This document shows positions 945-46,842 of a stretch of 64,000 nucleotides of DNA, in pieces. The notes below the pieces were generated by a model that was given only the letters and a program-made list of their open reading frames with translations, had not been told where the DNA came from and searched no databases. Where the stretch lies: contig JBEKOJ010000001.1 in NCBI GenBank assembly GCA_049521895.1, positions 695,114 to 759,113 on the forward strand. Direction: 5' to 3'. The stretch is from Candidatus Saccharimonadales bacterium. Lineage in GTDB: Bacteria > Patescibacteriota > Saccharimonadia > Saccharimonadales > UBA10212. A program made the translations under genes and the position numbers. Position 1 is the first letter of the stretch. Each line of letters begins with the position of its first letter.

Positions 945-1301
945 GTGGAACTGCCCAAAAAATTTTTACACGACCGCTTAGTGCTACTGCTTATAACAAT
1001 AGTAGCTATCCTGTTAGTTATAGGTGTTAGTACGGTACTACTGCGTTTTGACGTTTCTAAAAACCCCACCACCATTGTTGCCTATAGGCCTAATATCTCT
1101 GGCGCCAGTTATCAAAGCGGCCGGCCCATAGATATCTATAGCTTGGCGATTTTTATGGCGCTTGTCTCCGTTGGCGGCGTGATTTTAGGTGCCCGCACCT
1201 ACATTGTGCGCCGTTCAATAGCTATTTTTCTTCTTAGCTCCACCGTCTTTCTGCTCATCTTGGCTATCCGCGTGGCCTGGAGCATTATATCGCTCCAGTA
1301 G
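945..1301 (+). CDS. small integral membrane protein, function unknown
   Basis: Track ORF (GTG start). About three hydrophobic helices are visible in the translation. Confidence 0.5.
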   Translation: MELPKKFLHDRLVLLLITIVAILLVIGVSTVLLRFDVSKNPTTIVAYRPNISGASYQSGRPIDIYSLAIFMALVSVGGVILGARTYIVRRSIAIFLLSSTVFLLILAIRVAWSIISLQ

Positions 1302-1428
1302 GAGCGAATTTAGCATCTACCATTTGTCATTTAGCATTTATTTTTCATTTGTCATTTAGCATTGAGCAGCAAAGTTAAATGTTACCTGTTAAATAAATGT
1401 GAATTGTGAACTGTTAAATGTAAAATAG
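1291..1428. repeat. CATTT/AAATG word-hairpin element, copy H1
   Basis: Small GC hairpin CGCTCC-AGTA-GGAGCG over the stop codon. A long AT-rich imperfect palindrome follows, with left arm (CATTTNN)n and right arm (AAATG)n. Contains the 15-mer CTGTTAAATAAATGT at 1386-1400. Confidence 0.7.
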
Positions 1429-1432
1429 TCTT

Positions 1433-3049
1433 ATGAGATCAATCGAGATTCCGCAGCCTGAGGACCGCGACTGGAAATACCGGGCCTTCGAGATTCTACC
1501 GGCAGTGTTAACCTGGACAATCCTAAGCCTTCCCGTAGTTTTGGGCATTATCAGCGCCCCGGCGGCGGCATTCTTCGTCATTGGCTACTTAATGCTTTGG
1601 TTTGTCCGTGCTATCGGTATAGATCTGCGCTCGCTCCAGGGATGGCATAATTTGAACCAACATAAAAGACTCCCTTGGAAAAAGCTCAATAGCGATCTGG
1701 AAATCCTCGAACCCAGGACTAAAAATGCCCCTGGCTGGCATGCCCGTAATCTACGCCGGGTAGAGAATAATATCCCCCGCACCCGCATTAAACCCAGCGA
1801 GGTTTATCACGCCGTTATCATCGCTTTCTGGAACGAGTCACGCGAGATCTTAGGGCCGACGGTTAAATCGGTACTAGATAGTGACTACGACCCCAAAAAA
1901 ATCATCCTAATCTTGGCTTACGAGCAGCGCGGCGGCCCGGAAATAGAAGCTACCGCTAGAAGCTTGATTAAAGAATACGGCAAAGATTTCTACTACGCCC
2001 ATGCCGTGATGCACCCATGGCCAATGACCGGGGAGGTTATCGGGAAGGGCGGCAATATTACTTATGCCGGTCGCTGGCTGAAAACCTACTTGGAAGAACA
2101 AAAAATTGACCCATTGCACGTTTTGGTCACCACACTTGATTCGGATAACCGTCCGGATCCTCAGTATCTTGGCGCCTTGACCTACACCTATTGTTCCACC
2201 GAGGATCCCAAACACTCCTCCTACCAGCCGGTACCAATGTTCCTCAATAATATCTGGGATGCGCCGGCGCCGATGCGCGTAGTCGCCACCGGTAACTCGT
2301 TTTGGAATATCATCTTGTCAATGCGCCCACACATGTTGCGTAACTTTTCCAGCCACGCCCAGCCGATGGCCGCTCTAATCGACACCGATTTTTGGAGTGT
2401 GCGCACTATCGTGGAGGACGGCCACCAATTTTGGCGAACCTGGTTCCGCTACGACGGCAACCACCAAGTCTATCCTATATACGTGCCGATTTACCAGGAT
2501 GCGGTACTGGCTGAAACCTACCGCAAAACCATAAAAATGCAGTTTATCCAGGTCCGGCGCTGGGCATGGGGCGCCTCCGACATAGCTTACTTTATCAACC
2601 AGGGCTTTTTTAAGATTAATAACATCCCGCTACATAAAAAAATTGCCAAATTTGGCCGCCTGCTAGAAGGCCACATTAGCTGGTCTACAGCTCCGCCGAT
2701 CCTACTGCTGTCCGCTTATCCGCCGTTTTTCCTGCATCCGCAAAGTTTTGTCGGCCAAGAGCTGCCCCAGTATGCCAGCGCCCTTCAGAGGATCGCTATG
2801 GTCGGTATTTTGATCAGCCTTTTTCTATGCATGAGATCGCTGCCCCCTAAGCCAGAGCGCTATAAACGCCGCCGCACCGTTTGGATGGTCATCCAATGGA
2901 TCTATCTGCCGATTACATCTATAATTTTCAGTTCCTTCGCTGCTATATACGCGCAAACCCGGCTGGCTTTTGGCCGGTATCTGGGCTTTATCGTTACTGA
3001 AAAAGCCAGTAAGAGTAAACGCGTGGACACCACAGAGTTACTGAAGTAA
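1433..3049 (+). CDS. membrane-bound family 2 glycosyltransferase (processive, cellulose/chitin-synthase-like)
   Basis: N- and C-terminal TM segments, DSDN acidic motif, and QVRRWAWG (the Q-x-x-R-W signature of processive GT2). Confidence 0.7.
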   Translation: MRSIEIPQPEDRDWKYRAFEILPAVLTWTILSLPVVLGIISAPAAAFFVIGYLMLWFVRAIGIDLRSLQGWHNLNQHKRLPWKKLNSDLEILEPRTKNAPGWHARNLRRVENNIPRTRIKPSEVYHAVIIAFWNESREILGPTVKSVLDSDYDPKKIILILAYEQRGGPEIEATARSLIKEYGKDFYYAHAVMHPWPMTGEVIGKGGNITYAGRWLKTYLEEQKIDPLHVLVTTLDSDNRPDPQYLGALTYTYCSTEDPKHSSYQPVPMFLNNIWDAPAPMRVVATGNSFWNIILSMRPHMLRNFSSHAQPMAALIDTDFWSVRTIVEDGHQFWRTWFRYDGNHQVYPIYVPIYQDAVLAETYRKTIKMQFIQVRRWAWGASDIAYFINQGFFKINNIPLHKKIAKFGRLLEGHISWSTAPPILLLSAYPPFFLHPQSFVGQELPQYASALQRIAMVGILISLFLCMRSLPPKPERYKRRRTVWMVIQWIYLPITSIIFSSFAAIYAQTRLAFGRYLGFIVTEKASKSKRVDTTELLK

Positions 3050-3198
3050 CTCTCATTTGACATTTATCATTTGACATTTAGCATTTATTTTTCATTTGAA
3101 CATTTTTCATTGCCCCACATTTGTTAAATACTACCTGTTAAATAAATGTAAATTGTTAAATGTAAAATGATAAATCCTGCAAAGCTAGCTTTGCAGGC
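3036..3198. repeat. CATTT/AAATG word-hairpin element, copy H2
   Basis: GC hairpin GAGTTAC-TGAA-GTAACTC over the GT2 stop, an AT-rich palindrome with CTGTTAAATAAATGT at 3135-3149, then hairpin CCTGCAAAGC-TAGC-TTTGCAGG over the nrdR stop. Confidence 0.7.
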
Positions 3199-3595: not shown

Positions 3596-3597
3596 AG

Positions 3598-3676
3598 AGG
3601 TATTCCGTATTGTGTATATGGTATTAGGTATTTCGGCATACTTTATACTCCATACCTGATACCCCATACTAAATAC
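3598..3676. repeat. GTAT/ATAC word-hairpin element, copy H3
   Basis: GGTATTAGGTATT ... ATACCTGATACC arms. Related to the two 23S insertions at 40725 and 41530. Confidence 0.55.
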
Positions 3677-3763
3677 TTTTTTGAGTGAACCATGTCAACA
3701 TATTGACATGGCCCTATTAAAAAAGCTAGTGGATAAAACTCACAAAACTGGGGATTGATAAAC

Positions 3764-4060: not shown

Positions 4061-5143
4061 ATGCCAAAACGCTATTTTAAAGAGGTGCAAAGGAGTAAAT
4101 CCGGTGGCCGCAGTGGAATTCTCAACACCCGTACCGGTTGGGTGAAAACGCCCTTTTTCATGCCGGTGGCTACCAAGGGCGCAGTGGTGGGCTTAGAGCC
4201 GGCCCAGGTAGCGGCTACCGGCGCTCAGGTATTGTTAGCTAACACCTACCATCTGCACATGCAGCCGGGCGAGAAGGTCATCAAAAAACTTGGCGGGCTG
4301 CAGGCTTTTACAGGGTGGAAAGGGCCAATGCTGACCGATTCTGGCGGTTTCCAAGTATTCTCGCTGGCCAACGTACGTAAGATCACCGAAGAGGGTGTAA
4401 CCTTTAAAGATCCTAAGTCTGGCCGCGAAGTTTTAATTACTCCCGAAAAATCTATGCAGATCCAGTCAGACTTGGGCGCCGATATCATCATGGCCTTTGA
4501 CGATTTAACAGGGTTGGATCCAGCGAAGACCAAAGTCCGTACAGATGAAGCCGTTGAGCGTACCCACCGCTGGCTTGTCCGCTGTATAGCCGAGTTCAAG
4601 AAACTGACAAAGAACCTGCCAGAAACAGAACGGCCTCTGTTGTTTGGTATCGCCCAAGGTGGCCTGGATAAAAAACTCCGCGCTAAAAGCTTGGAATTCG
4701 TGCAATCCCAGGAGGTAGACGGCTTAGGAATAGGCGGTTTATCCGTTGGCGAAAGCAAAAATGACATGCACGGCATGCTGAAATTCCTAGGCAAATTGTA
4801 CGACCCAACCAAAATTCGTTATCTGATGGGTGTGGGTGAACCTTCCAATATGCGCTACGCCATTGAACACGGCATAGACATGTTTGACTGCGTACTGCCA
4901 ACGCGCAACGCCCGCCACGGGTCACTCTGGATCACCGGTGATAAGAGATTGAACCTCAATAACGCCCGCCACGCAGCTGACCCCGGGCCGATAGACAATA
5001 AATGCGACTGTAGCACCTGTAAGATGGGCTACAGCCGCGCCTACTTGTACCAGCTTTTTAAGACGGATAACCCCTTAGGCGGCAGTTTGGCTTCTACCCA
5101 TAATTTACGTTATCTGGCCCGCCTCTGCGAAGAATATCAATAA
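4061..5143 (+). CDS. tgt: queuine tRNA-ribosyltransferase (tRNA-guanine transglycosylase)
   Basis: LLANTYHLHMQPG, TDSGGFQVFSL, DCVLPTRNARHG and the CxCxxC zinc site. Confidence 0.9.
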   Translation: MPKRYFKEVQRSKSGGRSGILNTRTGWVKTPFFMPVATKGAVVGLEPAQVAATGAQVLLANTYHLHMQPGEKVIKKLGGLQAFTGWKGPMLTDSGGFQVFSLANVRKITEEGVTFKDPKSGREVLITPEKSMQIQSDLGADIIMAFDDLTGLDPAKTKVRTDEAVERTHRWLVRCIAEFKKLTKNLPETERPLLFGIAQGGLDKKLRAKSLEFVQSQEVDGLGIGGLSVGESKNDMHGMLKFLGKLYDPTKIRYLMGVGEPSNMRYAIEHGIDMFDCVLPTRNARHGSLWITGDKRLNLNNARHAADPGPIDNKCDCSTCKMGYSRAYLYQLFKTDNPLGGSLASTHNLRYLARLCEEYQ

Positions 5144-12177: not shown

Positions 12178-12975
12178 ATGAAAACGCTGAAATTCGACCA
12201 TGGACAGGCCCAGGCTATCCTAGCCGGCCAAAAAAACTCTACTTGGCGGCTTTACGACGATAAGGACCTTTCTGTTAGCGACGATATAAAAATTGTCGAT
12301 AAAGTTAATCCCAAAAACCCGGAGAGTTGGCGGATTATTGGCCAGGCTAAAGTCACAGAAATCATTGAAAAGCTACTGGGGTCAGTGACAGAGGAGGATT
12401 TACGTGCCCGCCCGCCTTTCAAAACTAAGGAAGAGGTGCTGGAAACCTATCGTGGCTACTACGGCCTGCGCGTAAATTTTGAAACGCCAGTCAAGATTAT
12501 TTATTTTGATTTTACACCCACTGTTGGTGACCAGCCTAGCGGCGCTATGTTACTGGAAGAGGCTAAACTTTATACCGATGGCGCCTCGCGTGGCAACCCT
12601 GGCAATTCGGCCTGCGCCTATATTATTTGCAAACCCGATAATACAACGGTAGAGAAGGGCGGTTATTACATGGGTATGGCTACCAACAACCAGGCCGAAT
12701 ACTATGGTTTTATCAAGGGGCTAGAGCGGGCCCGTGACCTGGGAATTGATAAAGTAGACCTGTTTTCCGACAGCCAGCTAGTCGTTAATCAGATGACCGG
12801 TCGCTACAGGGTTAAGAACCAGGAATTGGCGCCGCTGCACCAGCAGGCCAAAGCTTTAGCAGAATCTTTTGAAGAGGTTGGCTTTACCTACGTGCCGCGT
12901 GAGCTTAACAAAATCGCCGACACCGAAGTCAATCGCATCTTGGACCAGGCCGAAAGAAACAAGCGCAAAAAATAG
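12178..12975 (+). CDS. ASCH domain fused to RNase H (type 1)
   Basis: N-terminal ASCH-like region (AILAGQKNSTWR). C-terminal LYTDGASRGNPG...NNQAEY...FSDSQLVVNQ...NKIAD (the DEDD residues of RNase HI). Confidence 0.7.
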   Translation: MKTLKFDHGQAQAILAGQKNSTWRLYDDKDLSVSDDIKIVDKVNPKNPESWRIIGQAKVTEIIEKLLGSVTEEDLRARPPFKTKEEVLETYRGYYGLRVNFETPVKIIYFDFTPTVGDQPSGAMLLEEAKLYTDGASRGNPGNSACAYIICKPDNTTVEKGGYYMGMATNNQAEYYGFIKGLERARDLGIDKVDLFSDSQLVVNQMTGRYRVKNQELAPLHQQAKALAESFEEVGFTYVPRELNKIADTEVNRILDQAERNKRKK

Positions 12976-13023: not shown

Positions 13024-13365
13024 GGCTCAGATTATCGGCTGATTGCGTGCAGCAATGCACGAGGAAAGTCCGGGCAGTACATGGCAAAGGCAGTTGCTAA
13101 CAGCAACCGGGGACAACCCTAGGGAAAGTGCCACAGAAACAACACAACCGTATCTCTAAAGGGTGCGGAAATGGTGAAACGAGTGAGGTAAGAGCTCACA
13201 GCGACCGCGGGTGACCGCGGGAGAAGGTAAACCCTGCCTACTGCAAGGAGACAGCTACCAGAGCGGCCAGCTACGCTGTCGATTGAACCGCTTGAGCCCA
13301 GTGGCAACGCTGGGCCTAGATAGATAATCAGCTAAAACAGAACCCGGCTTACGGATAATCTGGCT
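13024..13365 (+). ncRNA. rnpB: RNase P RNA (bacterial type A-like)
   Basis: Universal GAGGAAAGTCCGGGC, ACAGAACCCGGCTTAC, and P1 pairing of GCTCAGATTATC with GGATAATCTGGC. Confidence 0.85.
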
Positions 13366-13374
13366 GACAAAGAG

Positions 13375-17326: not shown

Positions 17327-17340
17327 CGCTGTGCTCCTCG

Positions 17341-17471
17341 GGCATTTGCCATTTGCCATTTGCCATTTGCCATTAATTTACCAAGTGGCATTTGCCGTTG
17401 ATTAAATGAAAAAAGATCAATAAATGTTAAATGTGAATTGTTAAATGTGAATTGGAATGACGTAGTCATGA
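17341..17471 (-). repeat. intercistronic word-hairpin cassette, copy H5 (rpmI-rplT spacer)
   Basis: Reverse complement is roughly four-fifths identical by eye to 27341-27472. (CATTTGC)x4 arm versus (AAATGT/GAATTG) arm. Confidence 0.7.
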
Positions 17472-17666
17472 CTAGACTCCTAGGTTCCGGCGGATGTCTT
17501 TATTGTGTTTGCCATGCAGCTGCTGCACACCGGCAAAATGCCGCTTGCGCGAAGCTGATTTCTTCTCTAAAAAGTGGCTGCCGGTGGCGCGCCTACGCAG
17601 CAATTTACCGGTCTTGGTGACGGTAATGCGCTTGCCGGTTCCTTTATGAGTCTTTAACTTTGGCAT
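17472..17666 (-). CDS. rpmI: 50S ribosomal protein L35
   Basis: MPKLKTHKGTGKRITVTKTGK... Confidence 0.9.
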   Translation of the reverse strand: MPKLKTHKGTGKRITVTKTGKLLRRRATGSHFLEKKSASRKRHFAGVQQLHGKHNKDIRRNLGV

Positions 17667-27340: not shown

Positions 27341-27472
27341 TCATGACTACGTCATTCCAATTATCATTTAACACTTTACATTTAACATTTATTGATCATT
27401 TTTCATTTAACAGATTCGAAAAATGGCAAATGCCAAATTAATGGCCAATGATAAATGGCCAATGATAAATGC
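27341..27472 (+). repeat. intercistronic word-hairpin cassette, copy H6 (gyrB-gyrA spacer)
   Basis: Starts TCATGACTACGTCATTCCAATT directly after the gyrB TAG. Ends AAATGCC directly before the gyrA SD. Confidence 0.7.
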
Positions 27473-27490
27473 CTCCGGAGGAGGCGTTTG

Positions 27491-32548: not shown

Positions 32549-32651
32549 GCGCGACGAGAGTCGCGCAGGAACAAGTAACAGGTAACAAGGAACTGGTTTT
32601 CCAGTTTCAAGTTTCATGTTTCGTGTTCCACAAATTCGCGTAAGCGAATTT

Positions 32652-32655
<4 letters not shown>
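32549..32655 (+). repeat. word-hairpin (GGAACA/AGTAACA type) in the 16S leader, copy H7
   Basis: GCGCGAC-GAGA-GTCGCGC, then AGGAACAAGTAACAGGTAACAAGGAACTGG-TTTT-CCAGTTTCAAGTTTCATGTTTCGTGTTCC, then CAAATTCGC-GTA-AGCGAATTT. Confidence 0.55.
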
Positions 32656-34241
<1,586 letters not shown>

Positions 34242-34258
34242 AGGGAGAATATTCAACC

Positions 34259-34386
34259 CGTGCTAACACACGGATTTAGCATTAAGCATTTTCCATTTAG
34301 CATTAATTTTTCATTTGACATTTGCCAACTGTTAAATAAATGTGAATTGTGAACTGTAAAGTAATAAATCTCGTGCAGAGCACGAG
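34259..34386 (+). repeat. CATTT/AAATG word-hairpin element in the 16S trailer, copy H8
   Basis: CCGTG-CTAACA-CACGG, an AT palindrome with CTGTTAAATAAATGT at 34329-34343, then CTCGTGC-AGA-GCACGAG. Confidence 0.7.
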
Positions 34387-34808: not shown

Positions 34809-35675
34809 ATGGCAATTTCTTATACACCCTTTGGGAACAAATATCAGGATACTGGCAAGCTTGTTATGGGTTTCCCAGATTTCCTTCGCGATGATCTTGT
34901 TGAGTGGATACAAAACGTCATGGAGTTGAATCGGCTCGCGAGTGCCCCTAGCGATTTATACAGAACTTCCGGCTATCTTGATGCTAAGTTCCGCCGATTT
35001 CTGCAGCGTGAATTCATGAGAAACTTTCCCGATGATTGGCCGCATTTTATAAGAGAGGTGGTTGCCGACGAAGAACTCCTCGCCGACTATTTGTCTCTCT
35101 TGCTGAGAAACTTTGCCAACGGATCCCAGGCGAAAGTTTTAGAGTCTTTGCTTCGTCACGTGAACTCAGAATTTACGGTAAAGGCTACCAAAAACGATGC
35201 TGAAGATTATGATGTGGGATGTTTTGACTTGGAATACAGAGTTCCACGTGCAGTTCGTACAAACGCAAACAATGCTCTAAATAGCCAGCTATTATTAGAT
35301 GCTTGGCATGCCTGCTACGGAACCAGATCGCCCGACTACGAAAAATGTGTTAGTGCATGTGCCGACTTCTTGGAGGGCTATCTACGGGATAAGTTTTATC
35401 CGGAGATGGAGAGAACAAAAACGATTCCTCAATTCATCAATGATTTCAAAGAACCAGAGAAAATTGGCTTCGTCGGCGATGGTTTCGTGAAAGACAGGAT
35501 GTCACTAGTAAGTTTACTGACCGGTCTAAGTAACGCTCGTGGTCAGCACACGACGGGCAAGGGGCGACCTCCTACGCCCGAAGACGCAAAGTATGTTCTG
35601 CATACGACGATCTATATTTGGAACTTGATGGAGGGCAAAAGTTCTAGAGGTGGTACTTCGAAGCCGGAGGAGTAG
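34809..35675 (+). CDS. hypothetical protein, possibly Abi_C/HEPN-type abortive-infection-like
   Basis: Track ORF. The C-terminal LSNARGQHTTG resembles the R-x-x-x-H(G) HEPN/Abi_C motif. Weak by-eye call only. Confidence 0.35.
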   Translation: MAISYTPFGNKYQDTGKLVMGFPDFLRDDLVEWIQNVMELNRLASAPSDLYRTSGYLDAKFRRFLQREFMRNFPDDWPHFIREVVADEELLADYLSLLLRNFANGSQAKVLESLLRHVNSEFTVKATKNDAEDYDVGCFDLEYRVPRAVRTNANNALNSQLLLDAWHACYGTRSPDYEKCVSACADFLEGYLRDKFYPEMERTKTIPQFINDFKEPEKIGFVGDGFVKDRMSLVSLLTGLSNARGQHTTGKGRPPTPEDAKYVLHTTIYIWNLMEGKSSRGGTSKPEE

Positions 35676-35855
35676 GACGTCGCTTAACGAACGGTCCGGG
35701 TTCCGGCTCAGACTGTCCCGGTCGGTGCTGTAAAAACGGCAGCATAGACAGCACTAAATATGGATTTTCGGACCGGAGATGGCTCACCGAGGGTCGATCT
35801 TTTCCGTGCTCGATGACGAGTGTGAGCCGCTCGCCGCCTTGTGGTCGAAAACGAC

Positions 35856-36359
35856 CTACGCCCACGACCCGGGATCGCCTGGAAACCGCCAAGGGTGGTA
35901 GCCTGTGCAGGGAGCCTGGCCGCAATACGGACAGACAGAAACGCGTCCACCATCATCCACATAGGCATTAGCGATGCGTTCTCGTTCCTTTCGCCACAGT
36001 CGTTCATTCTCCTCCCACTTGATAATTTCATCGGCTCCAATTAGCTCCGCGACGGCCGCGGCTTTTTCTGTCACGCGATTAACAACATCATGCATCGAAA
36101 GTGACTCGGCAACCACCTGAGCACCGCAATAAGCGTCAAAGGCGTAGATCAATCTGAGAGGGCGTTCTGATTCAACCTGTTCGTCACCCTCTGACTCCAA
36201 GTAGCTGACGATACCGCGCTTACGTCTTCGCGACATCCTACGACTTGAATTCCGTTCCCAGGCCTCTCGGCGAAGATTGAATCTTTCTTGTAAAAATTGT
36301 TCAACTTCTTGACGTTCACGTTGATAATCGCTTGGCAATTGTGGCTCGTACTCACTCAT
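35856..36359 (-). CDS. hypothetical protein with a C-terminal CPYCGQAPC cysteine cluster
   Basis: Track ORF. Charged N-terminus. No family recognised. Confidence 0.4.
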   Translation of the reverse strand: MSEYEPQLPSDYQRERQEVEQFLQERFNLRREAWERNSSRRMSRRRKRGIVSYLESEGDEQVESERPLRLIYAFDAYCGAQVVAESLSMHDVVNRVTEKAAAVAELIGADEIIKWEENERLWRKERERIANAYVDDGGRVSVCPYCGQAPCTGYHPWRFPGDPGSWA

Positions 36360-36811
36360 ACAATCATTATCTCATATTGTCTACTGAGCCAACAATGGAC
36401 TGCGATTAGTGGTGATACTTCGAAGCTGGGTTCGACCGCCGCGTAATCGATGGGGGCCCAGACTCAGGCTGTTCACCCCGAAGTAGCTTTAGTATAATTT
36501 CTAGAGGTTTGGGCAGGTTGGAAAGATGCCCAGTTAGGACCACCACGCAAAAGCTCGGCCTATGAGGCAAGAGCCAAACAATGATCTGTTTGACCCTTTG
36601 CCTTTTCGGCCGGCTTTTGTTTTTCCCCAAGCCACAGCTCCGTGGCTTGGGGACCCCAGCAGATTAATCTGCTATAATTACCTCTGTTCTTTAACAAATT
36701 TTCAAAGCGGCGGTCTAATCACCGTTTGAAAATTTGAGAGGAGCGGCATAGCACTAAGCCGAAGCTTTTGGCTTACTTGGCAAAATGAGGCAAGTGCGTA
36801 GGCCGTGACGA

Positions 36812-36888
36812 GGGGCATTAGCTCAGTTGGCTAGAGCACCACATTTGCAATGTGGGGGTCATCGGTTCAAATCCGATATGCTCCACCA
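36812..36888 (+). tRNA. tRNA-Ala (anticodon UGC), CCA encoded
   Basis: Acceptor GGGGCAT/ATGCTCC with the G3:U70 alanine identity pair. Anticodon arm CCACA-TTTGCAA-TGTGG. Confidence 0.9.
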
Positions 36889-36912
36889 GTCACCTTTAGG
36901 CGTATATCAATC

Positions 36913-37869
36913 TTATAAACTCGTTCTGGACTTGTATACGGCGCGGGCTAGCAGGAGACAGATATTGGATTCGGCGCCGCTGTGGCGGTTGATTTCGCCT
37001 CTGTTAATACCGTCGTAGCATTTTAAGTTCTTAGGCTGGTACATTTTCTGTTTGGCGATATTATCACCCTCAAACCAATTCAACCACTGCTTAGCGTTTG
37101 TGAGGCTGGCTCTCTGGCCATCAAACTGGTAACAGGCCACCCAGGCCAGCACCATGTAGGCAACATCTACCGGCTGCTGGGAGTAATCCGCTGGTCTAGC
37201 TTGGCCTTTTTGGAACCAACCGTCGTTGCCCACCGGACCAAGAACGCGGCCTTTTGTACAAACTTCCTCCAGAAACCCCAGCAACTTATAGGCCTTGTCA
37301 GCCATAGTCTTATCACCGCTGATCAGGCTGTAGCGTAAAAGGGAGTAGGGGATTATAGCGTTGGCATAAGTTATTCGTTGTTCCAGCCAATACCAATCTT
37401 TGGTGCAATTTTGCAGCAGCTTATCCATTTTGCCCGCTAACTGTTTGGCGAGCCCGGCGTCCCAATAAATAGCTCCCAGTAGCGCGTAAGCGTAACCCCG
37501 GATATGCTTCATCTTTGGCAGGGTTGGTCCAATCCGTACTAAAATCTTCCGGCACTCTTGTGGCTTAAATCCAGCTGATAGACTGTAGCCTAAAGCCCAG
37601 GCCACCTGGCCCTTGGCATCCTCAGAAGAAGGATAGGTGTTAAATTGTCCGCTAGAGGTGGCGAAGCCGTAAAAATCGCTACCTTTTCGCGAACGGCTAA
37701 TGTAGTCAAATAATACCTCGGCCCTGCCCAAATCATTATGTGCTAAACACGAGATCAAGCCACGCGCGGCGTCGTCAAGACTATAACCGGATTCTTTAAG
37801 CCACCTGCGGCCATCGGTGTGGTGGTGCACCCCGAAGCTATCTACTAAGCTGTCAAAAAAGTACTTCAT
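36913..37869 (-). CDS. (alpha/alpha)6-barrel (six-hairpin) glycosidase-like protein
   Basis: Track ORF with a repeating helical W/Y-rich pattern. 4-nt overlap with the upstream GT4 gene. By-eye call. Confidence 0.4.
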   Translation of the reverse strand: MKYFFDSLVDSFGVHHHTDGRRWLKESGYSLDDAARGLISCLAHNDLGRAEVLFDYISRSRKGSDFYGFATSSGQFNTYPSSEDAKGQVAWALGYSLSAGFKPQECRKILVRIGPTLPKMKHIRGYAYALLGAIYWDAGLAKQLAGKMDKLLQNCTKDWYWLEQRITYANAIIPYSLLRYSLISGDKTMADKAYKLLGFLEEVCTKGRVLGPVGNDGWFQKGQARPADYSQQPVDVAYMVLAWVACYQFDGQRASLTNAKQWLNWFEGDNIAKQKMYQPKNLKCYDGINRGEINRHSGAESNICLLLARAVYKSRTSL

Positions 37870-39110
37870 ACGGATTTAGGCAACGCGTCATCTATAATCT
37901 TCCAGTAAGCCTCGGCGACCCTGTCCCAGCCCATTTCCTTGCCGTATTTAGTGGCATTTAGCCTGATAGTCTTATACAGCCGCTGATTCGTTATTAGTAA
38001 TATTATGGCTGCGCCTATGGCTTCGGAATTATTGAATGGCACGAGTAGCCCACGATTTTTGGACAGGAGCTCCCTCGCATAGGCGTAAGGTGTGGAAATC
38101 GATACCAAACCGTTACCCACAGCGTAAGCTAACGTACCCGAGGCCGATTGCTCCGGGTCATTGTGGATTGTCAGATACACATCAGAAATAGCCAGATAAT
38201 CCAGTAGCAACTCCGAGGATATATATTTGTTTACAAATCTGACATGCTGGCTTACGCCCAAATCACGGGCCAGTTTTTTGAGGCTCTTGCGGTACTGCTC
38301 ACCGGCGTTTTTTATTATCTGGGGATGAGTCTGGCCGACGACCAGTAACTGAATCTGGGGGTACTCGGCTACTAAGTCAGGCAAGGTCTTAATAATGGCC
38401 TCGATATTCTTGTTCGGACCAATCAGGCCGCTAACCATTAGGTAAAATTTATCATCAGGCAGCTTTAGGCGTTTTAGGATCTTCGATCTGGCTTCGTTTT
38501 TTTCTTTAAGCTCAACCCCGTGGGGAATAAAGGTGGTCTTGCGGGCTATTGCTGGCCACTGATGAATAATCACGCCTTTTGATTGCTCTGTCATCAGGAT
38601 AATTTTGCATGAGCGGGCGGCTATTTCAGCTAGCACCTTCGAGCGCTCGGCATCTAGATGTGGTAAAACTGTATGCAAGGTAGTGATTATAGGAGCGTTA
38701 ACACCCTCCAGTAGGTCCAGCAAGTAATTGCCGGTTGGTGTGCGGTAATCCATGCCTTTTATGCGGAAATTTGCCCACTTGCCGCCGTATATGCCGTATT
38801 CGTGTTGTAACAATATAACGTCAGGCTTAAAGTGTCTTAGGGCTTCGGCGGCCCTCAAATAGCTCTCTTTAGAAGCAGTGTCGACAACAATCTTAACGTT
38901 GCTACCATAACTAAGTTTCTCTTTTTCTTCGGCGGCCACGACAAATAAATCCATCGGGGTGATCTTCTGCATATAAGTGATCAGGTTATTGGTAAAGGTA
39001 GCAATACCGCATTTTTTAGGTACGTACGAACCAATTACAGCAACCTTTGGCAGGCTTTTTTCAGAGATTGTACCAACTATTTTTTTGCTCGATTCGGCTA
39101 TTTTAACCAT
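37866..39110 (-). CDS. family 4 (GT-B) glycosyltransferase
   Basis: Two Rossmann halves. C-terminal PEQSASGTLAYAVGNGLVSISTP resembles the E-x7-E region. Confidence 0.7.
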   Translation of the reverse strand: MVKIAESSKKIVGTISEKSLPKVAVIGSYVPKKCGIATFTNNLITYMQKITPMDLFVVAAEEKEKLSYGSNVKIVVDTASKESYLRAAEALRHFKPDVILLQHEYGIYGGKWANFRIKGMDYRTPTGNYLLDLLEGVNAPIITTLHTVLPHLDAERSKVLAEIAARSCKIILMTEQSKGVIIHQWPAIARKTTFIPHGVELKEKNEARSKILKRLKLPDDKFYLMVSGLIGPNKNIEAIIKTLPDLVAEYPQIQLLVVGQTHPQIIKNAGEQYRKSLKKLARDLGVSQHVRFVNKYISSELLLDYLAISDVYLTIHNDPEQSASGTLAYAVGNGLVSISTPYAYARELLSKNRGLLVPFNNSEAIGAAIILLITNQRLYKTIRLNATKYGKEMGWDRVAEAYWKIIDDALPKSV

Positions 39111-39185
39111 TAACTAATTTCAGTCAGCTAGCTTTAGTACCCATGCTTTCACACCTGGCTGATTGAGTTATACTTAATATAACAA

Positions 39186-40142
39186 ATGTACTCAATAAAG
39201 AACAGATATGGTGGGTTAGAGCTAAGGCTGGAACGGCTTACCGATCAACCTATTTTAGTGCCGGATGGCCGCAGAGACTGGGAAGTGGGAGGAGTATTTA
39301 ATCCAGGAGTTATTAAAAACGGCACGGACTATATAATGATTTATCGTGCCTTTGGAAAAGACAAAATCTCACGGCTTGGCTATGCTTCTAGCAAAAATGG
39401 AATCTCATGGCGCAAAAACCCAAGGCCAATTATTGAGCCAGACCCTAGCGACAAGCAGGAAAGTCGAGGCATGGAAGACCCGCGGATCGTCAAACTCAAC
39501 GGTAGTTATTACATCACCTACACAGCGGCCGAGGGCTTTCCAGTCCGGAAAAGTTGGCGCTGGCGGACCATGATAAGGATTTTGGTTACTGAAGACTTTA
39601 AAGAAATTGGCAAAATAACCCCCAGTTTGCACGGCATCGGCGAAAAAAACGACAAAGACGCAGTATTGTTCCCGGCCAAAGTCAACGGCCAGTATTGGCT
39701 ATTGCACAGGGTCATTCCTGACGTGCATATCGCCCAATCAACCAACCTTATAAGCTGGCAAGAAAAAGGTACTGTAATTAAAAACCGCCAAGACGGCTGG
39801 TCGTACATAAAAGTTGGTGCTGCCGCACCGCCCGTGCTTACTGATTATGGCTGGCTGATGTTTTATCATGGTGTCCGCAGGGATAAAAGTTACGCCCTGG
39901 GGGTAGCATTACTGGATGCTGCTGACCCCTGTAAATTGACCCACCTTCTGCCTTATGCAATTTTTGAGCCGGAGCGGGATTACGAACTATTTGGTGTAGT
40001 GCCAAGGGTTGTCTTTGGTACGTCAGTGTTGGAAGTTGGTAGTGCGCTATGGGTTTATTACGGCGCTGCTGACAGGGTGATAGGCGTGGCCGCGATTGAT
40101 AAAAAAATACTCCTCGATAACCTCGTACGATACATGGTTTAA
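39186..40142 (+). CDS. GH130-family glycosidase/beta-mannoside phosphorylase-like protein
   Basis: GVFNPGVIKNG...YRA..., MEDPRIVKLNGSYYITYTA, and a five-bladed-propeller DUF377/GH130 pattern. Confidence 0.7.
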   Translation: MYSIKNRYGGLELRLERLTDQPILVPDGRRDWEVGGVFNPGVIKNGTDYIMIYRAFGKDKISRLGYASSKNGISWRKNPRPIIEPDPSDKQESRGMEDPRIVKLNGSYYITYTAAEGFPVRKSWRWRTMIRILVTEDFKEIGKITPSLHGIGEKNDKDAVLFPAKVNGQYWLLHRVIPDVHIAQSTNLISWQEKGTVIKNRQDGWSYIKVGAAAPPVLTDYGWLMFYHGVRRDKSYALGVALLDAADPCKLTHLLPYAIFEPERDYELFGVVPRVVFGTSVLEVGSALWVYYGAADRVIGVAAIDKKILLDNLVRYMV

Positions 40143-40724
40143 AGCTAACAATTTTGTCTGGTGGCCTCCTTTCGAAGAAGTTACCACCGGTGATTTAATA
40201 TCTAAAACCAATTCTTCTATACTCAACTGATACCAAAACGTAACCTTTTTTACAGCGATTTGGGGTTGATTACATCTGTTAAAATTGCTAAAATAGTCTT
40301 GGTCGTTTGAGTACGGCCAGTTTGTTAGTCGGCAACCGGCCGGTACTAATCCTCTGGGCTTACTCAAACTCTTTTCCGCGAATCGATCTTTCATGACGCA
40401 CGGTGGAGCGAGAGCAAGCATGTAATTTAACAACTCGGGCTGTATAGCGGCCAGCAAAGCCGCATGCAGATTGAGAAAGCAAATGACAGATAGCATTGGT
40501 GAGAACCAATAGCTAGTCAAATGCACAAATCAGTAGTGAGATTTATCTCATTACTTTGTAAAAAGTTACTCAAGCGCACATAAAGGATGCCTTGACGCAA
40601 AACACCGAAGAAGGACGTAGATGACTGCGATAAGCCGCGGGGAGCTGCCTCACAAGCTTTGATCCGTGGATGTCCGAATGGGGAAACCTCATGCAAGTTA
40701 TATTGCATGGCGCCAAACTGAAGT

Positions 40725-40838
40725 GCTTCTCACTGGCGTGAGAAGCGGTATAGCGTATCTCGTATAAAGTATTAGGTATTTTTTATACCATATACCTTAT
40801 ACCGGATACCAAATACTGCTTACCGCGTTAGCGAGGAG
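40725..40838 (+). repeat. GTAT/ATAC word-hairpin insertion in 23S domain I, copy H9
   Basis: 114 nt inserted between AACTGAAGTG and CATATAGG relative to E. coli. Left half is near-identical to 41530-41587. Confidence 0.7.
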
Positions 40839-41194
40839 CATATAGGTCTGGTAGCGGTAAGCTGGGGAACTGAAACATCTTAGTACCCAGAGGAAAGGAA
40901 AGTAAACAACGAATCCCGTAGTAGTGGCGAGCGAACCGGGACCAGCCCAAACCTTTTAAGTTTCCATCTGTTAATTCAGGTGGATAAATTGGTAGATGAA
41001 TACTTAATAGGGGTTGTGACAAACAATTAACCAGTACGGAGCCCTGGAGCAATCCAGGACTGCGTACTGCTGCAGGTTCTACCGATGGCCTGCGTAAGGT
41101 TACAAATTTCCGGGGCGAGCAGAACAGTCTGGAAAGGCTGGCCAAAGACAGTGAAAGCCTGGTACGCAAAGTGTCGGAAACCTTATCAATTGTT

Positions 41195-41353
41195 TAGCGG
41201 TGCGCAGCACCGCATTTACCATTGACCATTTTTCATTTACCATTGATTTTTCATTGACCATTTACCATTGCAAGCTGCAATTGTTAAATGTTACCTGTTA
41301 AATAAATGTAAATTGTTAAATGTAAATTGATAATTGCGATGCTACGCATCGCC
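41195..41353 (+). repeat. CATT/AATG word-hairpin insertion in 23S, copy H10
   Basis: GCGGTGC-GCA-GCACCGC, an AT palindrome with CTGTTAAATAAATGT at 41295-41309, then GCGATGC-TAC-GCATCGC. Confidence 0.7.
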
Positions 41354-41529
41354 TGTCGAGTAGGTCGGGACACGTGAAACCCTGACTGAAACCAGAGGGA
41401 CCACCCTCTAAGGCTAAATATGTTTTGCGATCGATAGTGTACAAGTACCGTGAGGGAAAGGTTAAAAGAACCGCGGATAGCGGAGTGAAATAGAGCCTGA
41501 AATTATGTGCGTACAAGGAGTCGGAGCGA

Positions 41530-41645
41530 GCTTCTCACTAGCGTGAGAAGCGGTATAGCGTATTTCGTATAAAGTATTAGGTATTTTTTCATACCTTATA
41601 CCCAATACCTGATACCAAATACTGCTTATCGCGTAAGCGAGAAGC
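41530..41645 (+). repeat. GTAT/ATAC word-hairpin insertion at the 23S helix 25 position, copy H11
   Basis: Inserted within the GGAGC...GTGAC helix-25 equivalent. Outer stem GCTTCTC/GAGAAGC. Confidence 0.7.
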
Positions 41646-42264
41646 TTGTGACGGCGTGCTTTTTGTAGAACGATCCAGCGAGTTACTCAGTCACCGCAAG
41701 CCTAAGCCATTTGGCGGAGGCGCAGTGAAAGCGAGGGTTAAATACCCGAAATTAGTGGGGCTGAGTAGACCCGAAACCGGGTGACCTAACCATGGGCAGG
41801 CTGAAGCGTGGGTAAAACCACGTGGAGGGCCGCACCACCGTGAGTTACAATACACTTGGATGACCTGTGGTTAGTGGTGAAATGCTAATCGAACCCGGAG
41901 ATAGCTGGTTCTCCTCGAAATAGCTTTAGGGCTAGCGTCGTACGGTAACGATCAGGGGTAGAGCTCTGTTTTGGACTAGGGCCAGTGATGGTACCTACCC
42001 TTGACAAACTACGAATACTGGTCGCGGAACTACGGCAGTTAGAACGTGGGGGCTAAGCTCCACGCTCGAAAGGGAAACAGCCCAGATCGCCAGCTAAGGT
42101 CCCTAAATATACGCTAAGTGGGAAACGAAGTGGGAATTCTTGGACAATAAGGATGTTGGCTTAGAAGCAGCCATTCATTTAAAGAGTGCGTAACAGCTCA
42201 CTTATCAAGAAATCCTGCGCGGAAAATGTAACGGGGCTAAAGCGTATTACCGAAGCTGCGAACG

Positions 42265-42392
42265 CCAGTAGTGGGACTAAGTCTACGGACTTGTCGCAAA
42301 CTGTTCTTGAAGGGAAAAAGAGCAGCCCGAGAGAAATGTATTCCATTTCCCCGGCGCGATGAGAAAAAACCGCAGGTTTTGTCTCATTACTG
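42265..42392 (+). other. about 128-nt expansion at the 23S helix 45 position
   Basis: Replaces the ~20-nt GCAGCGACGCTTATGCGTTGTTGGG segment of E. coli. Closed by CCAGTAGTG/CATTACTGG. Confidence 0.55.
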
Positions 42393-42892
42393 GTTTGGTA
42401 GAGGAGCGTTGATATCGCACTGAAGTCAGATCGTAAGGTCTGGTGGAGCGTTATCAAGTGAGAATGCTGGAATGAGTAACGATAAGGCAGGTGAGAATCC
42501 TGCCCACCGAAAGAGCAAGGTTTCCTGGGCCATGATAATCAGCCCAGGGTTAGTCGGTCCTAAGCCGAGGCAGGATATGCGTAGGCGATGGACAACGGGT
42601 TAATATTCCCGTACCGGTGTTAATTTGTTAAGTGGTGCGCATTGGATAAGTAGGAGCGGATTCATGGTTATATCCGTCTAACTAGTCCTTACGGGCTAGG
42701 AATGAAACGGCTGCAATATGCCGGATTTCTGCCGACACGGTGCCTAGAAAAGCCACCTAGCTTATGATTAACGCCGACCGTACCGCAAACCGACACAGGT
42801 GCTCAGGGCGAGTAGCCCAAAGGTGTACGAGTGATTCTTCGTTAAGGAACTCGGCAATATAGCGACCGTAAGTTCGCGATAAGGTCTGCCTG

Positions 42893-43058
42893 GGCTCTTC
42901 ACAGGTGAAGAGCCAATGGACAAATGCGACAAATGTTCAATGGACAAATGAATAGTCAGTGCAATCAATGATTCAACGCATTGAGGTATTAAAAGCATTC
43001 ATTAGTTCATTAGTTCATTCGTTCATTGATTCATTGGGCTCATCGCTTGCGATGAGCC
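42893..43058 (+). repeat. AATGGACAAATG/CATTCATT word-hairpin insertion in 23S, copy H12
   Basis: GGCTCTTCAC-AG-GTGAAGAGCC, an AT palindrome, then GGGCTCATCGC-T-TGCGATGAGCC. Confidence 0.65.
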
Positions 43059-43236
43059 TAGGCTGCAACAAAAGAACCCATGCAACTGTTTACTAAAAAC
43101 ACAGGTCTCTGCTAACACGAAAGTGGATGTATAGGGGCTGACGCCTGCCCGGTGCTGGAAGGTTAAGGGGAAAGCTTTACGGCTAGAACTGAAGCCCCAG
43201 TGAACGGCGGCCCTAACTATAAGGGTCCTAAGGTAG

Positions 43237-44078: not shown

Positions 44079-44202
44079 ACAGTTTGGCATTGTGCCGAGC
44101 GTGTATATGTGTAGCATAGGTGGGAGACTTTGAAGCTGACGCGCTAGCGTCGGTGGAGTCACCGGTGAAATACCACCCTTATATACGTTTTGTACTTACA
44201 TG

Positions 44203-44379
44203 GCCCTTGAATTGCAAGCAATTCAGGGCATTTACCATTGACCATTTTGCATTACCATTAATTTTTCATTTGTCATTTTTCATTGCAGCTGCAATTGTTA
44301 AATGGTATCTGTTAAATAAATGTTAATTGTGAATTGTAAAATGTTAAATGACCCTGGAAGATTACTTGTAATTCCAGGG
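44203..44379 (+). repeat. CATT/AATG word-hairpin insertion in 23S domain V region, copy H13
   Basis: GCCCTGAATTGC..GCAATTCAGGGC-type clamp, an AT palindrome with CTGTTAAATAAATGT at 44309-44323, then CCCTGGAA...TTCCAGGG. Confidence 0.7.
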
Positions 44380-44600
44380 TCGTGGACAGTGTCTGATGGG
44401 TAGTTTAACTGGGGCGGTTGCCTCCTAAAGAGTAGCGGAGGCGTTCAAAGGTTGGCTAGATACGGATGGAAATCGTATTGGTAGTGTATACGCACAAGCC
44501 AGCTTGACTGCGAGGCATACAAGCCGAGCAGGCACGAAAGTGGGAGTAAATGACCCGCTGATCGCACCTTTTGGTGCATGAGTGTGGTATTGACAGCGAA

Positions 44601-46207: not shown

Positions 46208-46213
46208 ATATAT

Positions 46214-46803: not shown

Positions 46804-46842
46804 CTTTAGCAGATTCGCGAACAAAAAAATTAACAAAACAAA

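Follow-up and report, generated by a model that had tools for sequence, protein, structure and literature searches.

The question raised by this locus is what kind of element can occur as an AT-rich palindrome both in the gaps between protein genes and within the rRNA genes of one bacterium. In the 64-kb stretch analyzed here (the window), an earlier note made from the letters alone had listed seven such elements, five of them sharing the exact 15-mer CTGTTAAATAAATGT. All seven exist (A1-A5, B1, and B2), and the 15-mer is found at the same five positions (1386, 3135, 34329, 41295, and 44309), always on the + strand. Allowing up to two mismatches, 0.12 occurrences would be expected by chance, and none of 100 shuffles reaches five. 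Our preferred reading, to which we give a probability of about 0.6, is that these sequences are small palindromic insertion elements without coding capacity, in families that are lineage-specific within Saccharibacteria, similar to MITEs or REPINs and carrying expression signals.

Core anatomy and element families

An alignment in register of 14 copies from six genomes, consisting of the seven window elements and seven copies from five other Saccharibacteria contigs, has a mean column identity of 75% and 31 invariant columns. The core, ∼121 nt long (12 of the 14 copies measure 119-123 nt), starts with about eight CAYTTnn words and continues with nnAARTG words, also about eight; the period is 7 nt except for a single central unit of 11 nt. 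This is consistent with the word-built left and right arms of the first description. Also as described, the AT-rich cores are imperfect palindromes, with ∼39-42 Watson-Crick positions out of ∼58 per arm. The words are invariant, and the spacers between them are free and non-complementary. The right arm is more conserved than the left one (82% versus 75%) and groups by context, not by genome. A solo right arm is present upstream of a gene in the relatives L017 and L025. The constant core length and the invariant columns correspond to a dispersed family with defined ends and not to low-complexity drift. The repeated words permit many folding registers, as in slippage-prone sequence. The GC-rich flank hairpins are present on both sides in A2, A3, A4, and A5 and on one side in A1, B1, and B2.

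Besides A/B, two sister families absent from the earlier note were found, family C with one element and family D with three (D0-D2), bringing the total in the window to 11 copies. The word sets differ by family (CATTT; AATG/TTCATT; GTAT), the architecture being common to all three. The orientation of the copies is unambiguous by nhmmer; for example, A1 scores 95 bits on the + strand and 50 on the − strand. Palindrome detectors (ungapped, BLAST-based) were only partly sensitive, missing A3, A4, B1, D0, and the gap element of L022. Moreover, the family is not confined to the window, as the same 22-mer occurs in copies from the five other Saccharibacteria contigs; the 22-mer scan gave two true and two chance matches in genomes and four true and one chance match in metagenomes, where one sequence is counted twice (L006 = L010). 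A search of IMG/VR with the A 22-mer and the D flank/core junction gave zero matches, and a viral vector was rejected on this basis. That no described element has this composition is also upheld, since the elements have no Rfam match at the gathering threshold or at E ≤ 1 and the literature offers one remark on uncharacterized rRNA inserts (PMC11270868).

Copies at gene boundaries and in structural RNA genes

The placements given in the earlier note are correct, namely intercistronic gaps for A1, B1, and B2, a position after the 16S gene for A3, and positions within the 23S gene for A4 and A5. A1 (1291-1432, + strand; core 1307-1428) fills the stop-to-start gap before a GT2-like gene. Its junction hairpin (1291-1306, CGCTCC-AGTA-GGAGCG) has native SLQ codons as the 5′ half and the TAG stop in the loop, and the element ends in TAAAAT, followed by 6 nt and the ATG of the GT2-like gene at 1433. 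A2 (3035-3197, + strand; core 3053-3175) lies between two convergent stop codons, the left hairpin (3035-3052) being formed by native ELLK codons, TAA, and their complement, and the right hairpin (3176-3197) being a perfect 22-nt palindrome that contains the nrdR stop (− strand). In the stop-codon hairpins, native codons form one strand. D2 (3596-3672, + strand) is a family D core without GC flanks, 80% identical to D1, and it separates the nrdR start codon (3595-3593, − strand) from the NrdR-box-like palindrome of that gene.

B1 (17327-17474, + strand; core 17341-17455) occupies the rpmI-rplT gap of a − strand operon, with its core in A-type orientation on the + strand, hence antisense to transcription. 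Its end hairpin ATGACGTAGTCAT (17457-17469) adjoins the rpmI stop (17472-17474), and it brings a new Shine-Dalgarno (SD) sequence, GAGGAG (17334-17339, − strand), 7 nt before the rplT ATG (17326). B2 (27341-27490, − strand; core 27357-27473 in − orientation) occupies the gyrB-gyrA gap, with the hairpin TCATGACTACGTCAT immediately 3′ of the gyrB stop and an anti-SD/SD hairpin GCCTCCGGAGGAGGC at 27471-27485, before the ATG at 27491. Both correspond to one element in opposite orientations, with ends GAGGAG and GGAGGAGG, and both are antisense to the surrounding genes. A-type copies are sense to transcription in 11 of 11 cases.

Two signals would be relevant for the neighboring genes. The first would be the hairpin enclosing the upstream stop codon. 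The second would be, in the B type, an SD sequence held in a CCUCC/GGAGG hairpin and, in gene-proximal A-type copies, a −10-like TAAAAT located 6 nt before the ATG, leading to a leaderless mRNA. TAAAAT-N6-ATG is found in A1 and in the copies of L004 and L007, where the ATG is that of lysS, and of L008, and native SD-less genes of the genome show the same geometry, for example TATACT-N6-ATG at 13419. No sigma-70-type −35 element is recognizable for this putative promoter, and a consensus scan shows no enrichment. In a terminator consensus scan, only the right hairpin of A2 passes (− strand, tail ATTTATCATT), the total for the region, 5, not being above that of shuffles (3.3 ± 2.2); AUUUA-type tails follow the other junction hairpins.

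Odd rRNA genes are a known feature of candidate phyla radiation (CPR) bacteria, and the 23S gene of the window carries six short inserts and two introns. A3 (34257-34386, + strand) is found in the 16S-23S spacer, 18 nt past the 16S 3′ end, with a shortened core of 96 nt (34274-34369) between flank hairpins at 34257-34273 and 34370-34386. A4 (41197-41352, + strand; core 41214-41335) lies in 23S domain I, near Escherichia coli position ∼360, and its flank hairpins are GCGGTGC-GCA-GCACCGC (41197-41213) and GCGATGC-TAC-GCATCGC (41336-41352). A5 (44202-44381, + strand; core 44230-44349) is at E. coli 2213, in the helix 79 region, with flank hairpins at 44202-44229 and 44350-44381. The family C element (42888-43063, + strand) is located at E. 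coli 1704-1751 (∼1726), in the helix 63 region, and has AATG words first and CATT words second; its flank hairpins are GGCTCTTCAC..GTGAAGAGCC and GGCTCATCGC..GCGATGAGCC, and its left arm is ∼90% identical to the gyrB-gyrA gap element of L022. D0 (40722-40842, + strand), built of GTAT/ATAC words, is in domain I after E. coli ∼163, in the helix 9/10 loop (H10), between the flanks GCTTCTCAC-TGGC-GTGAGAAGC and GCTTACCGC-GTT-AGCGAGGAGC. D1 (41527-41648, + strand), at E. coli 546 in helix 25, repeats D0 almost exactly, including its flanks. A further insert, not built of words, is present in helix 45 (E. coli 1167-1177). For RNase P RNA, a copy is found in P12 of L003, the RNase P RNA of the window lacking this insert.

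Helix 25 and helix 45 are two known sites of 23S intervening sequences (IVSs) (PMC2801512, PMC11270868); D1 is at helix 25 and has a predicted long stem, whereas the other copies are at non-classical sites. Saccharibacteria rRNA is reported to carry uncharacterized short inserts, and Tsurumaki et al. 2024 counted 64 of 66 Saccharibacteria rRNA insertions with ≤250 bp and without intron or ORF features, guessing that they are RNase III IVSs (PMC11270868). These insertions are probably the same objects as the elements described here, although the word/palindrome anatomy, the families, and the presence outside rRNA are not described in that work (PMC11270868).

Empty sites in sister genomes and the insertion of the elements

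The comparison with related genomes, which the earlier note had proposed, found the orthologous sites of close relatives (81-95% protein identity) without the element. Where these sites can be aligned, they are empty in eight of eight cases, those of A1, A2, A4, B1, B2, D0, D1, and D2. For example, at the A1 site of L016, L017-19, and L025, the genes overlap by ATGA (caATGAga), at the A2 site, L016, L017/18, and L025 have convergent genes that share 12 nt and no insert, and at the D2 site of L018 and L025, the ATG adjoins the NrdR-box-like palindrome. Also, the gap between rpmI and rplT is 1-3 nt in L014, L015, and L021 (TAGcagATG), and that between gyrB and gyrA is 1-3 nt in L014, L015, L020, L021, and L024 (TAAgATG). 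In the 23S gene of the sister genome L014, D0 and D1 are not present and the helices are short, the A4 position has only a short 9-bp hairpin, and the A5 position holds an unrelated insert of ∼130 nt. No element copies were found in ∼115 kb of relatives' DNA (L014-16, L015, L020, L021), these zero counts resting mainly on nhmmer and on direct reading of the junctions. Copy density is patchy, with 11 copies in the window and four in 8 kb of L003. Three other assemblies of the same strain are identical across the shared 22.6 kb, with no strain-level polymorphism. Inferring gap inserts from extended N-termini of GyrA homologues proved uninformative.

Because the orthologous sites in sister genomes are empty, the elements entered the window lineage recently by insertion, and this mobility is what the comparative data show most directly. 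The elements occur only where insertion is harmless, that is, at 0-3-nt or overlapping gene junctions, 5′ leaders, the rRNA spacer, variable 23S helix tips, and P12 of RNase P RNA. Based on these data, the elements would spread as DNA through an enzyme acting in trans, and the purging of lethal insertions would leave the placement that appears precise. Their persistence in operons would be due to signals, brought or acquired by each copy, that allow the neighboring genes to go on functioning. In the rRNA, the GC flanks would pair with each other, and the copy would protrude as a long irregular helix, in agreement with the long hairpins predicted for the rRNA copies with their flanks (see below), being either an expansion segment or an IVS trimmed by RNase III at its ∼20-bp GC base. 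RNase III-type processing is plausible only for the rRNA copies, and both this step and the promoter are read from sequence pattern only. No transposase, recombinase, integrase, or RAYT gene was found in the window, 64 kb of a 745-kb contig, when ∼30 of its ORFs were compared with Pfam.

Among the closest known systems are the bacterial MITEs, in particular the Correia elements of Neisseria (CREE/NEMIS), which are also non-coding palindromic repeats of ∼100-160 bp at gene boundaries and polymorphic among strains. Outward promoters are present in Correia elements, which also function as terminators and, once transcribed, are cleaved by RNase III. The elements reported here are likewise small, non-coding, and multi-copy, with polymorphic sites (11 window copies, five other contigs, and eight of eight sites empty). 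However, no conserved 26-bp terminal inverted repeat or TA duplication was found. Other differences are the core composed of 7-nt words, the variable and partly native flank hairpins, the copies inside rRNA and RNase P RNA genes, and the host, a CPR bacterium whose genome measures ∼0.75 Mb. With respect to the termini, A-type copies have only the core ends ATTTA...TAAAT in common, the whole unit being palindromic, and the D-type ends GCTTCTCAC and GCGAGAAGC match at eight of nine positions and recur at three sites.

As in the REP/REPIN-RAYT system (PMC3733652; Bertels and Rainey), two inverted GC-rich imperfect hairpins surround a spacer and could fold as two small hairpins or as one long hairpin, an alternative that applies to D0, D1, the family C element, A4, and A5. 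In contrast, the spacer is here a conserved AT-rich word palindrome of 120 nt, the flanks are not conserved across A copies, no GTAG/CGTC tag or shared tetranucleotide tag was found, and the 64-kb window has no RAYT (Y1 transposase) gene. The elements depart from the REPIN consensus, a conserved GC-rich imperfect palindrome of 20-40 nt with a tag, in that the inverted GC doublets, although existing, are site-specific in A copies and without a shared tag. An integron attC site was rejected, with no GTTRRRY/RYYYAAC pair at the ends and no integrase or cassette array in the window.

Comparable selfish palindromes of organelles are the double-hairpin elements of Allomyces. The Rickettsia palindromic elements and the sponge RHE (PMC2800124) are also selfish palindromes of reduced genomes, found within structural RNA genes and at gene borders. 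Nonetheless, the Rickettsia elements insert in frame in protein-coding genes, whereas the elements described here avoid coding sequence, and the sequences are unrelated to those of the Rickettsia and organellar elements. Finally, the 23S IVSs of Salmonella, Campylobacter, Leptospira, and Coxiella (PMC2801512, PMC4990558) are short stem-loops at variable helix tips with a sporadic distribution among close relatives, as observed here; the difference is that our elements also occupy mRNA intergenic gaps, the internal transcribed spacer, and RNase P RNA, as well as additional 23S sites (about E. coli 163, 360, 1726, and 2213), excision being only putative.

Alternative explanations and implications

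Another explanation, raised in the earlier note and regarded by us as unlikely, is that the elements are RNA-processing cassettes, in which RNase III or another nuclease would cut transcripts at the hairpins, separating cistrons and excising segments of pre-rRNA, with the GC hairpin on either side serving as a cap for the resulting 3′ or 5′ end. The layout of hairpin, AU-rich helix, and hairpin suits such end protection, A-type copies are all sense to transcription, and D1 lies in a helix known as an RNase III IVS site (PMC11270868). Also, the folds of the rRNA copies point in this direction. With their flanks, these copies have as + strand minimum free energy structure one long hairpin (z from −5.7 to −11.9), the GC flanks being predicted to pair into basal stems of ∼20 bp; the values are a minimum free energy of −76.9 with z = −11.9 on the + strand for the family C element, z = −10.1 for D0, and z = −10.6 for D1, and five of six rRNA copies are more stable on the sense strand. 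However, the core-only folds are marginal (z from +0.1 to −4), the transcribed strand of B-type copies is the one that folds less stably, and the sister genomes lack the elements, with genes abutting or overlapping at those sites, which argues that there is no conserved processing need.

The earlier note had further proposed that the arms differ mostly by transitions and that pairing could depend on G:U and be strand-specific. This is not supported, as each copy has 2-4 G:U and 1-2 A:C positions against 10-18 true mismatches (U·U, C·U, A·A, and A·G), mostly in periodic 2×2 loops that would make the core a poor dsRNA substrate; transitions are thus a minority, and the better-folding strand varies between copies. 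Selection on the RNA fold of the core finds no support either, since RNAalifold predicts no pairs (0) on the core alignment and covarying pairs are almost absent. When built by hand in register, the structure has 92.3% pairing, compared with 91.1% in shuffles, with a double change in only four pairs. A structured functional RNA of the Rfam type was therefore rejected for the core, there being neither covariation nor an Rfam match at E ≤ 1.

A somewhat less probable explanation considers the word cores and the GC-hairpin flanks as separable modules of a mobile system without classical transposase-defined ends. In this case, hairpin loops and stop/start junctions would receive copies of the cores through synthesis that is guided by structure or templated during repair, for example by fold-back or template switching; an inverted copy of the neighboring target would thereby be written at each junction, and the heptad words would be a recognition code for a dedicated protein. 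If true, this would represent a new mode of sequence spread that specifically uses RNA-gene helix tips and intercistronic junctions in ultra-small genomes.

Several observations count against the preferred reading itself. The outer flank hairpins of the A copies differ at every site and are partly native codons in A1 and A2, which is not expected of a classical cut-and-paste element with fixed ends. Moreover, no clean direct repeat of a target-site duplication is seen at the filled and empty junctions of A1, A2, B1, B2, D0, and D1, the weak candidates being AGGAG..AG at B1 and CTAAAG at L003_B. One flank type occurs with different cores, and one site holds different cores in sister lineages, so that one unit moving as a block does not explain the data. 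For example, the gyrB-gyrA gap of L022/L023 has a C-type core between homologous flanks; in the GyrA tree, L022 groups with L014 (95% identity) and then with the window (89%), and this gap holds a C-type core in L022, is empty in L014, and holds a B-type core in the window. Also, the rpmI-rplT gap holds an element in the window and in L003, a more distant genome, but three closer relatives have an empty gap, a pattern that needs repeated targeting of one site or precise loss.

It is quite improbable that the elements are arrays for a multimeric DNA- or RNA-binding protein that reads CA or TG every 7 nt, the palindrome being a by-product. Ribbon-helix-helix repressors read 7-bp heptad arrays and TRAP reads spaced triplets, and such reading would agree with invariant words separated by free and non-complementary spacers, with a fixed number of units and one 11-nt central unit, with the higher conservation and context grouping of the right arm, and with its solo occurrence upstream of a gene in L017 and L025. 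Against this, no candidate protein was identified, such arrays would be purposeless inside rRNA and RNase P helices, three word families would require three proteins, and the close relatives lack the elements.

The least probable proposal, that heptad replication slippage and intra-strand template switching generated the hairpins in place with no pre-existing element inserted, fits the slippage-prone words and the A1 and A2 junction hairpins, which are inverted copies of adjacent native sequence as produced by template-switch mutations (PMC8794818), but it is effectively refuted for the cores by shared sequence, since copies at unrelated sites and in different species have the exact 22-mer in common, align end to end, and have a fixed length, and two different 23S sites hold D0 and D1, which nearly coincide in sequence, also in their flanks. 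Template switching may still account for the junction hairpins, and if these are written at insertion, the mechanism itself would be new.

Returning to the reading as mobile insertion elements, the data place short rRNA inserts of Saccharibacteria in dispersed repeat families with recent activity, which are also found splitting operons. There, judging from the motifs at their ends, the copies seem to supply SD or leaderless-promoter signals of their own. There are practical consequences, as the AAATG words create false start codons (gyrA was called 12 codons too long) and rRNA primers and models can fail because of the inserts, the Rfam match to 23S being truncated. The insert positions also show where 23S rRNA and RNase P RNA naturally tolerate insertions. 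The elements appear to be small selfish repeats of a variant not described before, and even in a genome of ∼0.75 Mb the most essential genes are heavily loaded with selfish DNA.

Elements in the window and empty sites in relatives

The AT-rich palindromes of CATTT/AAATG words are small insertion elements that form a genuine family. All seven listed in the earlier note are present at its positions, being five of type A (A1, 1291-1428; A2, 3036-3198; A3, 34259-34386; A4, 41195-41353; A5, 44203-44379) and two of its variant B (B1, 17341-17471; B2, 27341-27472), and the shared 15-mer it reported does occur in five exact copies, all on the + strand, with 0.12 expected even when two mismatches are allowed. 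A scan for CATT/AATG word density together with a repeat search recovered the seven elements and found additional ones: a CATT/AATG-rich element of sister family C (42880-43067, in 23S H63) and members of family D, with GTAT/ATAC words, in the nrdR leader (D2, 3596-3672) and in the 23S gene (D1, 41549-41623, and a further copy, D0, 40722-40842).

The decisive comparison is that of orthologous sites in relatives, these being contigs that encode homologues of GyrA and of a GT2-like protein. The presence/absence check proposed in the earlier note shows that, for eight of eight alignable sites, one or more close relatives have no element. Between gyrB and gyrA, TAA and ATG are separated by 1-3 nt in L014, L015, L020, L021, and L024, and the window carries a 150-nt insert; between rpmI and rplT, TAGcagATG in L014 and TAAgctATG in L015 correspond to 148 nt in the window, and the called genes of L021 lie 1 nt apart. 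For L016, L017-19, and L025, ORF945 and the GT2 gene overlap as caATGAga, where in the window A1 separates CAG-TAG from ATG, and the convergent GT2 and nrdR genes overlap by 12 nt, where the window has A2. The nrdR ATG adjoins an NrdR-box-like palindrome in L018 and L025, and D2 intervenes in the window. Also, the 23S gene of L014, a sister genome (90% GyrA identity), is without D0, A4, and D1 and has inserts of unrelated sequence at the positions of H45, H63, and H79. Searching with an A/B profile (nhmmer) gave no A/B copies in L014-L016, L020, and L021, and in L017-19 and L025 nothing but a solo right arm, which follows tRNA-Gly. This arm of type A (profile positions 60-120; L017 3132-3192; L018, L019; L025 1411-1471) starts directly after the tRNA, with 8 nt separating it from the GTG of the next gene; in the window only a short remnant is left there (gatgtaaacttacataaGTG, 927-947).

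The palindrome upstream of nrdR (catgtcaacatattgacatg) is conserved in the window (3691-3710), L018, L025, and L016, and its position beside the start codon in L018 and L025 may reflect a leaderless, autoregulated nrdR. A conserved GC-rich leader (…cgcgccgggcgcggaataaatccgacgctcgggctgc…) is found upstream of nrdR in L016 (4140-4260) and L006 (3640-3740), with no Rfam match at E<=1.

The family is also found outside the window. A 22-mer (CTGTTAAATAAATGTNAATTGT) scanned once per collection gave two true and two chance matches in GTDB species representatives and zero in IMG/VR, with true matches in other Saccharibacteria MAGs and metagenome contigs. In the Saccharibacteria MAG L003, an element lies within RNase P RNA, as an insert of ~150 nt at the P12 tip that is absent from the RNase P RNA of the window when both are aligned; two other copies occupy the rpmI-rplT gap and the position immediately 5' of this RNA, and one of C type is at 4150-4270. 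The Saccharimonadales MAG L004 has an element in the stop-to-start gap before a lysS-like gene, a site also occupied in the metagenome contig L007; further metagenome copies are in L008 and in the nrdR leader of L006 (identical to L010).

Host genome and rRNA operon

The window genome is that of a member of the Saccharibacteria (CPR): its GyrA and GT2-like protein have homologues 84-90% and 70-84% identical, respectively, whose named sources are Candidatus Saccharibacteria/Saccharimonadales. The sequence lies within the 745-kb contig ENA ERZ27249952 k141_256040, and an identical assembly is in JGI 3300018004.

The rRNA operon comprises 16S (32651-34239), tRNA-Ile, three ORFs, tRNA-Ala, 23S (from 40559), and 5S (46094-46208). 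The 16S and 23S genes are 6.3 kb apart because protein genes intervene between tRNA-Ile and 23S (34809-40142), being three hypothetical ORFs without Pfam matches, a GT1, and a GH130, with tRNA-Ala embedded among them. Alignment to the E. coli 23S extends the gene from 40559 to ~45830, ~5.3 kb interrupted by six short inserts and two introns with LAGLIDADG ORFs, one at E. coli 1931 (43235-43930; ORF 43316-43804) and one at E. coli ~2593 (ORF 44917-45393). The Rfam 23S match goes no further than 44878, leaving out the 3' exon. L014 has no 1931 intron and a shorter insert, with no called ORF, at 2593. The second of the classical IVS sites is helix 45 (E. coli 1167-1177); the window has a 113-nt non-word insert there (42266-42388), and L014 has at the same position one of similar length and different sequence. 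Elsewhere, a giant ORF on the + strand (46834-64000, at least 5,722 codons) continues past the window end and is made of diverged tandem units of ~1.45 kb each; relatives have at this locus genes of >2,700 aa and >2,890 aa with CBM_4_9/Kelch-type matches. An ORF with ASCH and RNase H / RVT_3 domains, conserved in L021, occupies 12178-12975, a short way upstream of RNase P RNA (13027-13367).

Cores, flanks, and folding

Trimmed to the AT-rich core, 14 A/B elements (seven in the window, seven in other contigs) have lengths of 122, 123, 96, 122, 120, 119, 121, 122, 123, 122, 107, 115, 117, and 121 nt and align in register, with a mean column identity of 75% and 31 invariant columns. The invariant positions are CA every 7 nt on the left and TG every 7 nt on the right, each arm having a single 11-nt unit at its middle (CATTTATTTTT / AAATAAATG). 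Comparing the left arm with the reverse complement of the right gives ~39-42 Watson-Crick, 2-4 G:U, and 1-2 A:C positions, against 10-18 other mismatches, located at the two spacer positions of each heptad; by these counts, the earlier note is mistaken in holding transitions to be the main difference between the arms.

Transcribed into RNA, the core would form AU helices of 4-5 bp strung together by 2x2 loops. Core-only MFEs range from -12 to -35 kcal/mol (z +0.1 to -4) and favor neither strand consistently, contrary to the strand-specific pairing suggested earlier, and the registers of single-core MFE structures differ from copy to copy. RNAalifold found no consensus structure on the A/B core alignment. 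A hand-derived in-register structure is 92.3% paired versus 91.1% in column shuffles, with only four pairs showing a double change, a single one each. The pairing potential of the core therefore follows from its conserved words, and neither RNAalifold nor the comparison with column shuffles gave positive evidence of selection for a core fold.

The GC-rich junction hairpins that bracket the core show, unlike the core, signs of structural constraint, since at structural-RNA sites each local hairpin pairs perfectly within itself, its differences being compensated (for example, GCGGTGC/GCACCGC and GCGATGC/GCATCGC), and the B-type end hairpin covaries (ATGAC/GTCAT in the window, GTGAT/ATCAC in L003). 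At structural-RNA sites (A3, A4, A5, and L003 P12), left and right hairpins are alike and pair across on the + strand, so that the MFE structure is one continuous helix; with flanks included, z is -4.4 for A3, -5.7 for A4, -6.8 for A5, -10.1 for D0, -10.6 for D1, and -11.9 for C. The 5' strand of the A1 hairpin (CGCTCC-AGTA-GGAGCG) corresponds to native Ser-Leu-Gln codons, with the stop codon in the loop, and relatives have the same residues in different codons. The same rule holds for A2, whose left hairpin (GAGTTAC-TGAA-GTAACTC) is native ELLK plus TAA and whose right hairpin holds the nrdR stop on the other strand. The inner strands may have been written at insertion, by fold-back or template switching (cf. 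PMC8794818), or may have been selected afterwards.

Flanks and cores combine modularly, because one flank type occurs with different cores and one site with different cores. GyrA identities give the tree ((L022/L023, L014) 95%, window 89%), and the gyrB-gyrA gap has a C-type core in L022/L023 (left arm ~90% identical to the window 23S H63 element), is empty in L014, and has a B-type core in the window, the filled gaps having common flanks (ATGACT... after the stop, CCTCCnnnGGAGGCGT before the start). Moreover, the flank pair GCTTCTCAC...GCGAGRAGC accompanies D cores at two window 23S sites and, in L003, the A core that lies upstream of RNase P RNA; the C core has a similar pair. This modularity could stem from recombination among elements or from nested insertion.

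Expression signals and nature of the family

A new SD (GAGGAG; GGAGGAGG in a CCUCC/GGAGG hairpin) closes both B1 and B2, 6-7 nt ahead of the start codon; at these sites relatives depend on coupling, their SD-like motif being within the upstream gene. Public calls make gyrA 12 codons too long at its start (864 versus 852 aa; 27455-27490), an annotation artefact because the ATG lies within an AAATG word of B2. The gene-proximal A copies (A1, L004, L007, L008) have no SD and all end in TAAAAT, exactly 6 nt, and ATG; the solo right arm of L017/L025 ends in TAAAAT, 8 nt, and GTG. Many window genes also have no SD and a -10-like hexamer (TATACT, TACAAT) 6-8 nt before the start codon, as in TGtTATACT-N6-ATG at 13419, TATACT-N7-GTG at 10972, and TGtTACAAT-N8-ATG at 4061, with further examples at 326 and 39186; these motifs point to leaderless mRNAs being widespread in this genome. 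The A right end would then supply a leaderless-type promoter, such transcription probably being common here. Among gene-proximal copies, right arms of different species are 89-91% alike and left arms group by genome, which fits a constraint on the right end.

A copies appear sense to the local transcript (11/11), B copies (B1, B2, and the L003 copy) are antisense (3/3) and have hairpin/SD ends instead, and nine of ten oriented window copies are on the + strand. This bias could reflect either a transcription-related filter or a replication-related insertion bias.

We infer that these elements may spread by a transposition mechanism, undergo processing by RNase III, and act as promoters. No published description of the family was found, the only related report found being a remark (PMC11270868) that Saccharibacteria rRNA insertions are short and uncharacterised in 64 of 66 cases. 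Their kind is already known from MITE, REPIN, Correia, RPE, and IVS elements; what is new are the heptad-word cores of fixed length, the modular hairpin flanks, and the sites occupied in an ultra-small genome (rRNA, RNase P RNA, and intercistronic junctions).
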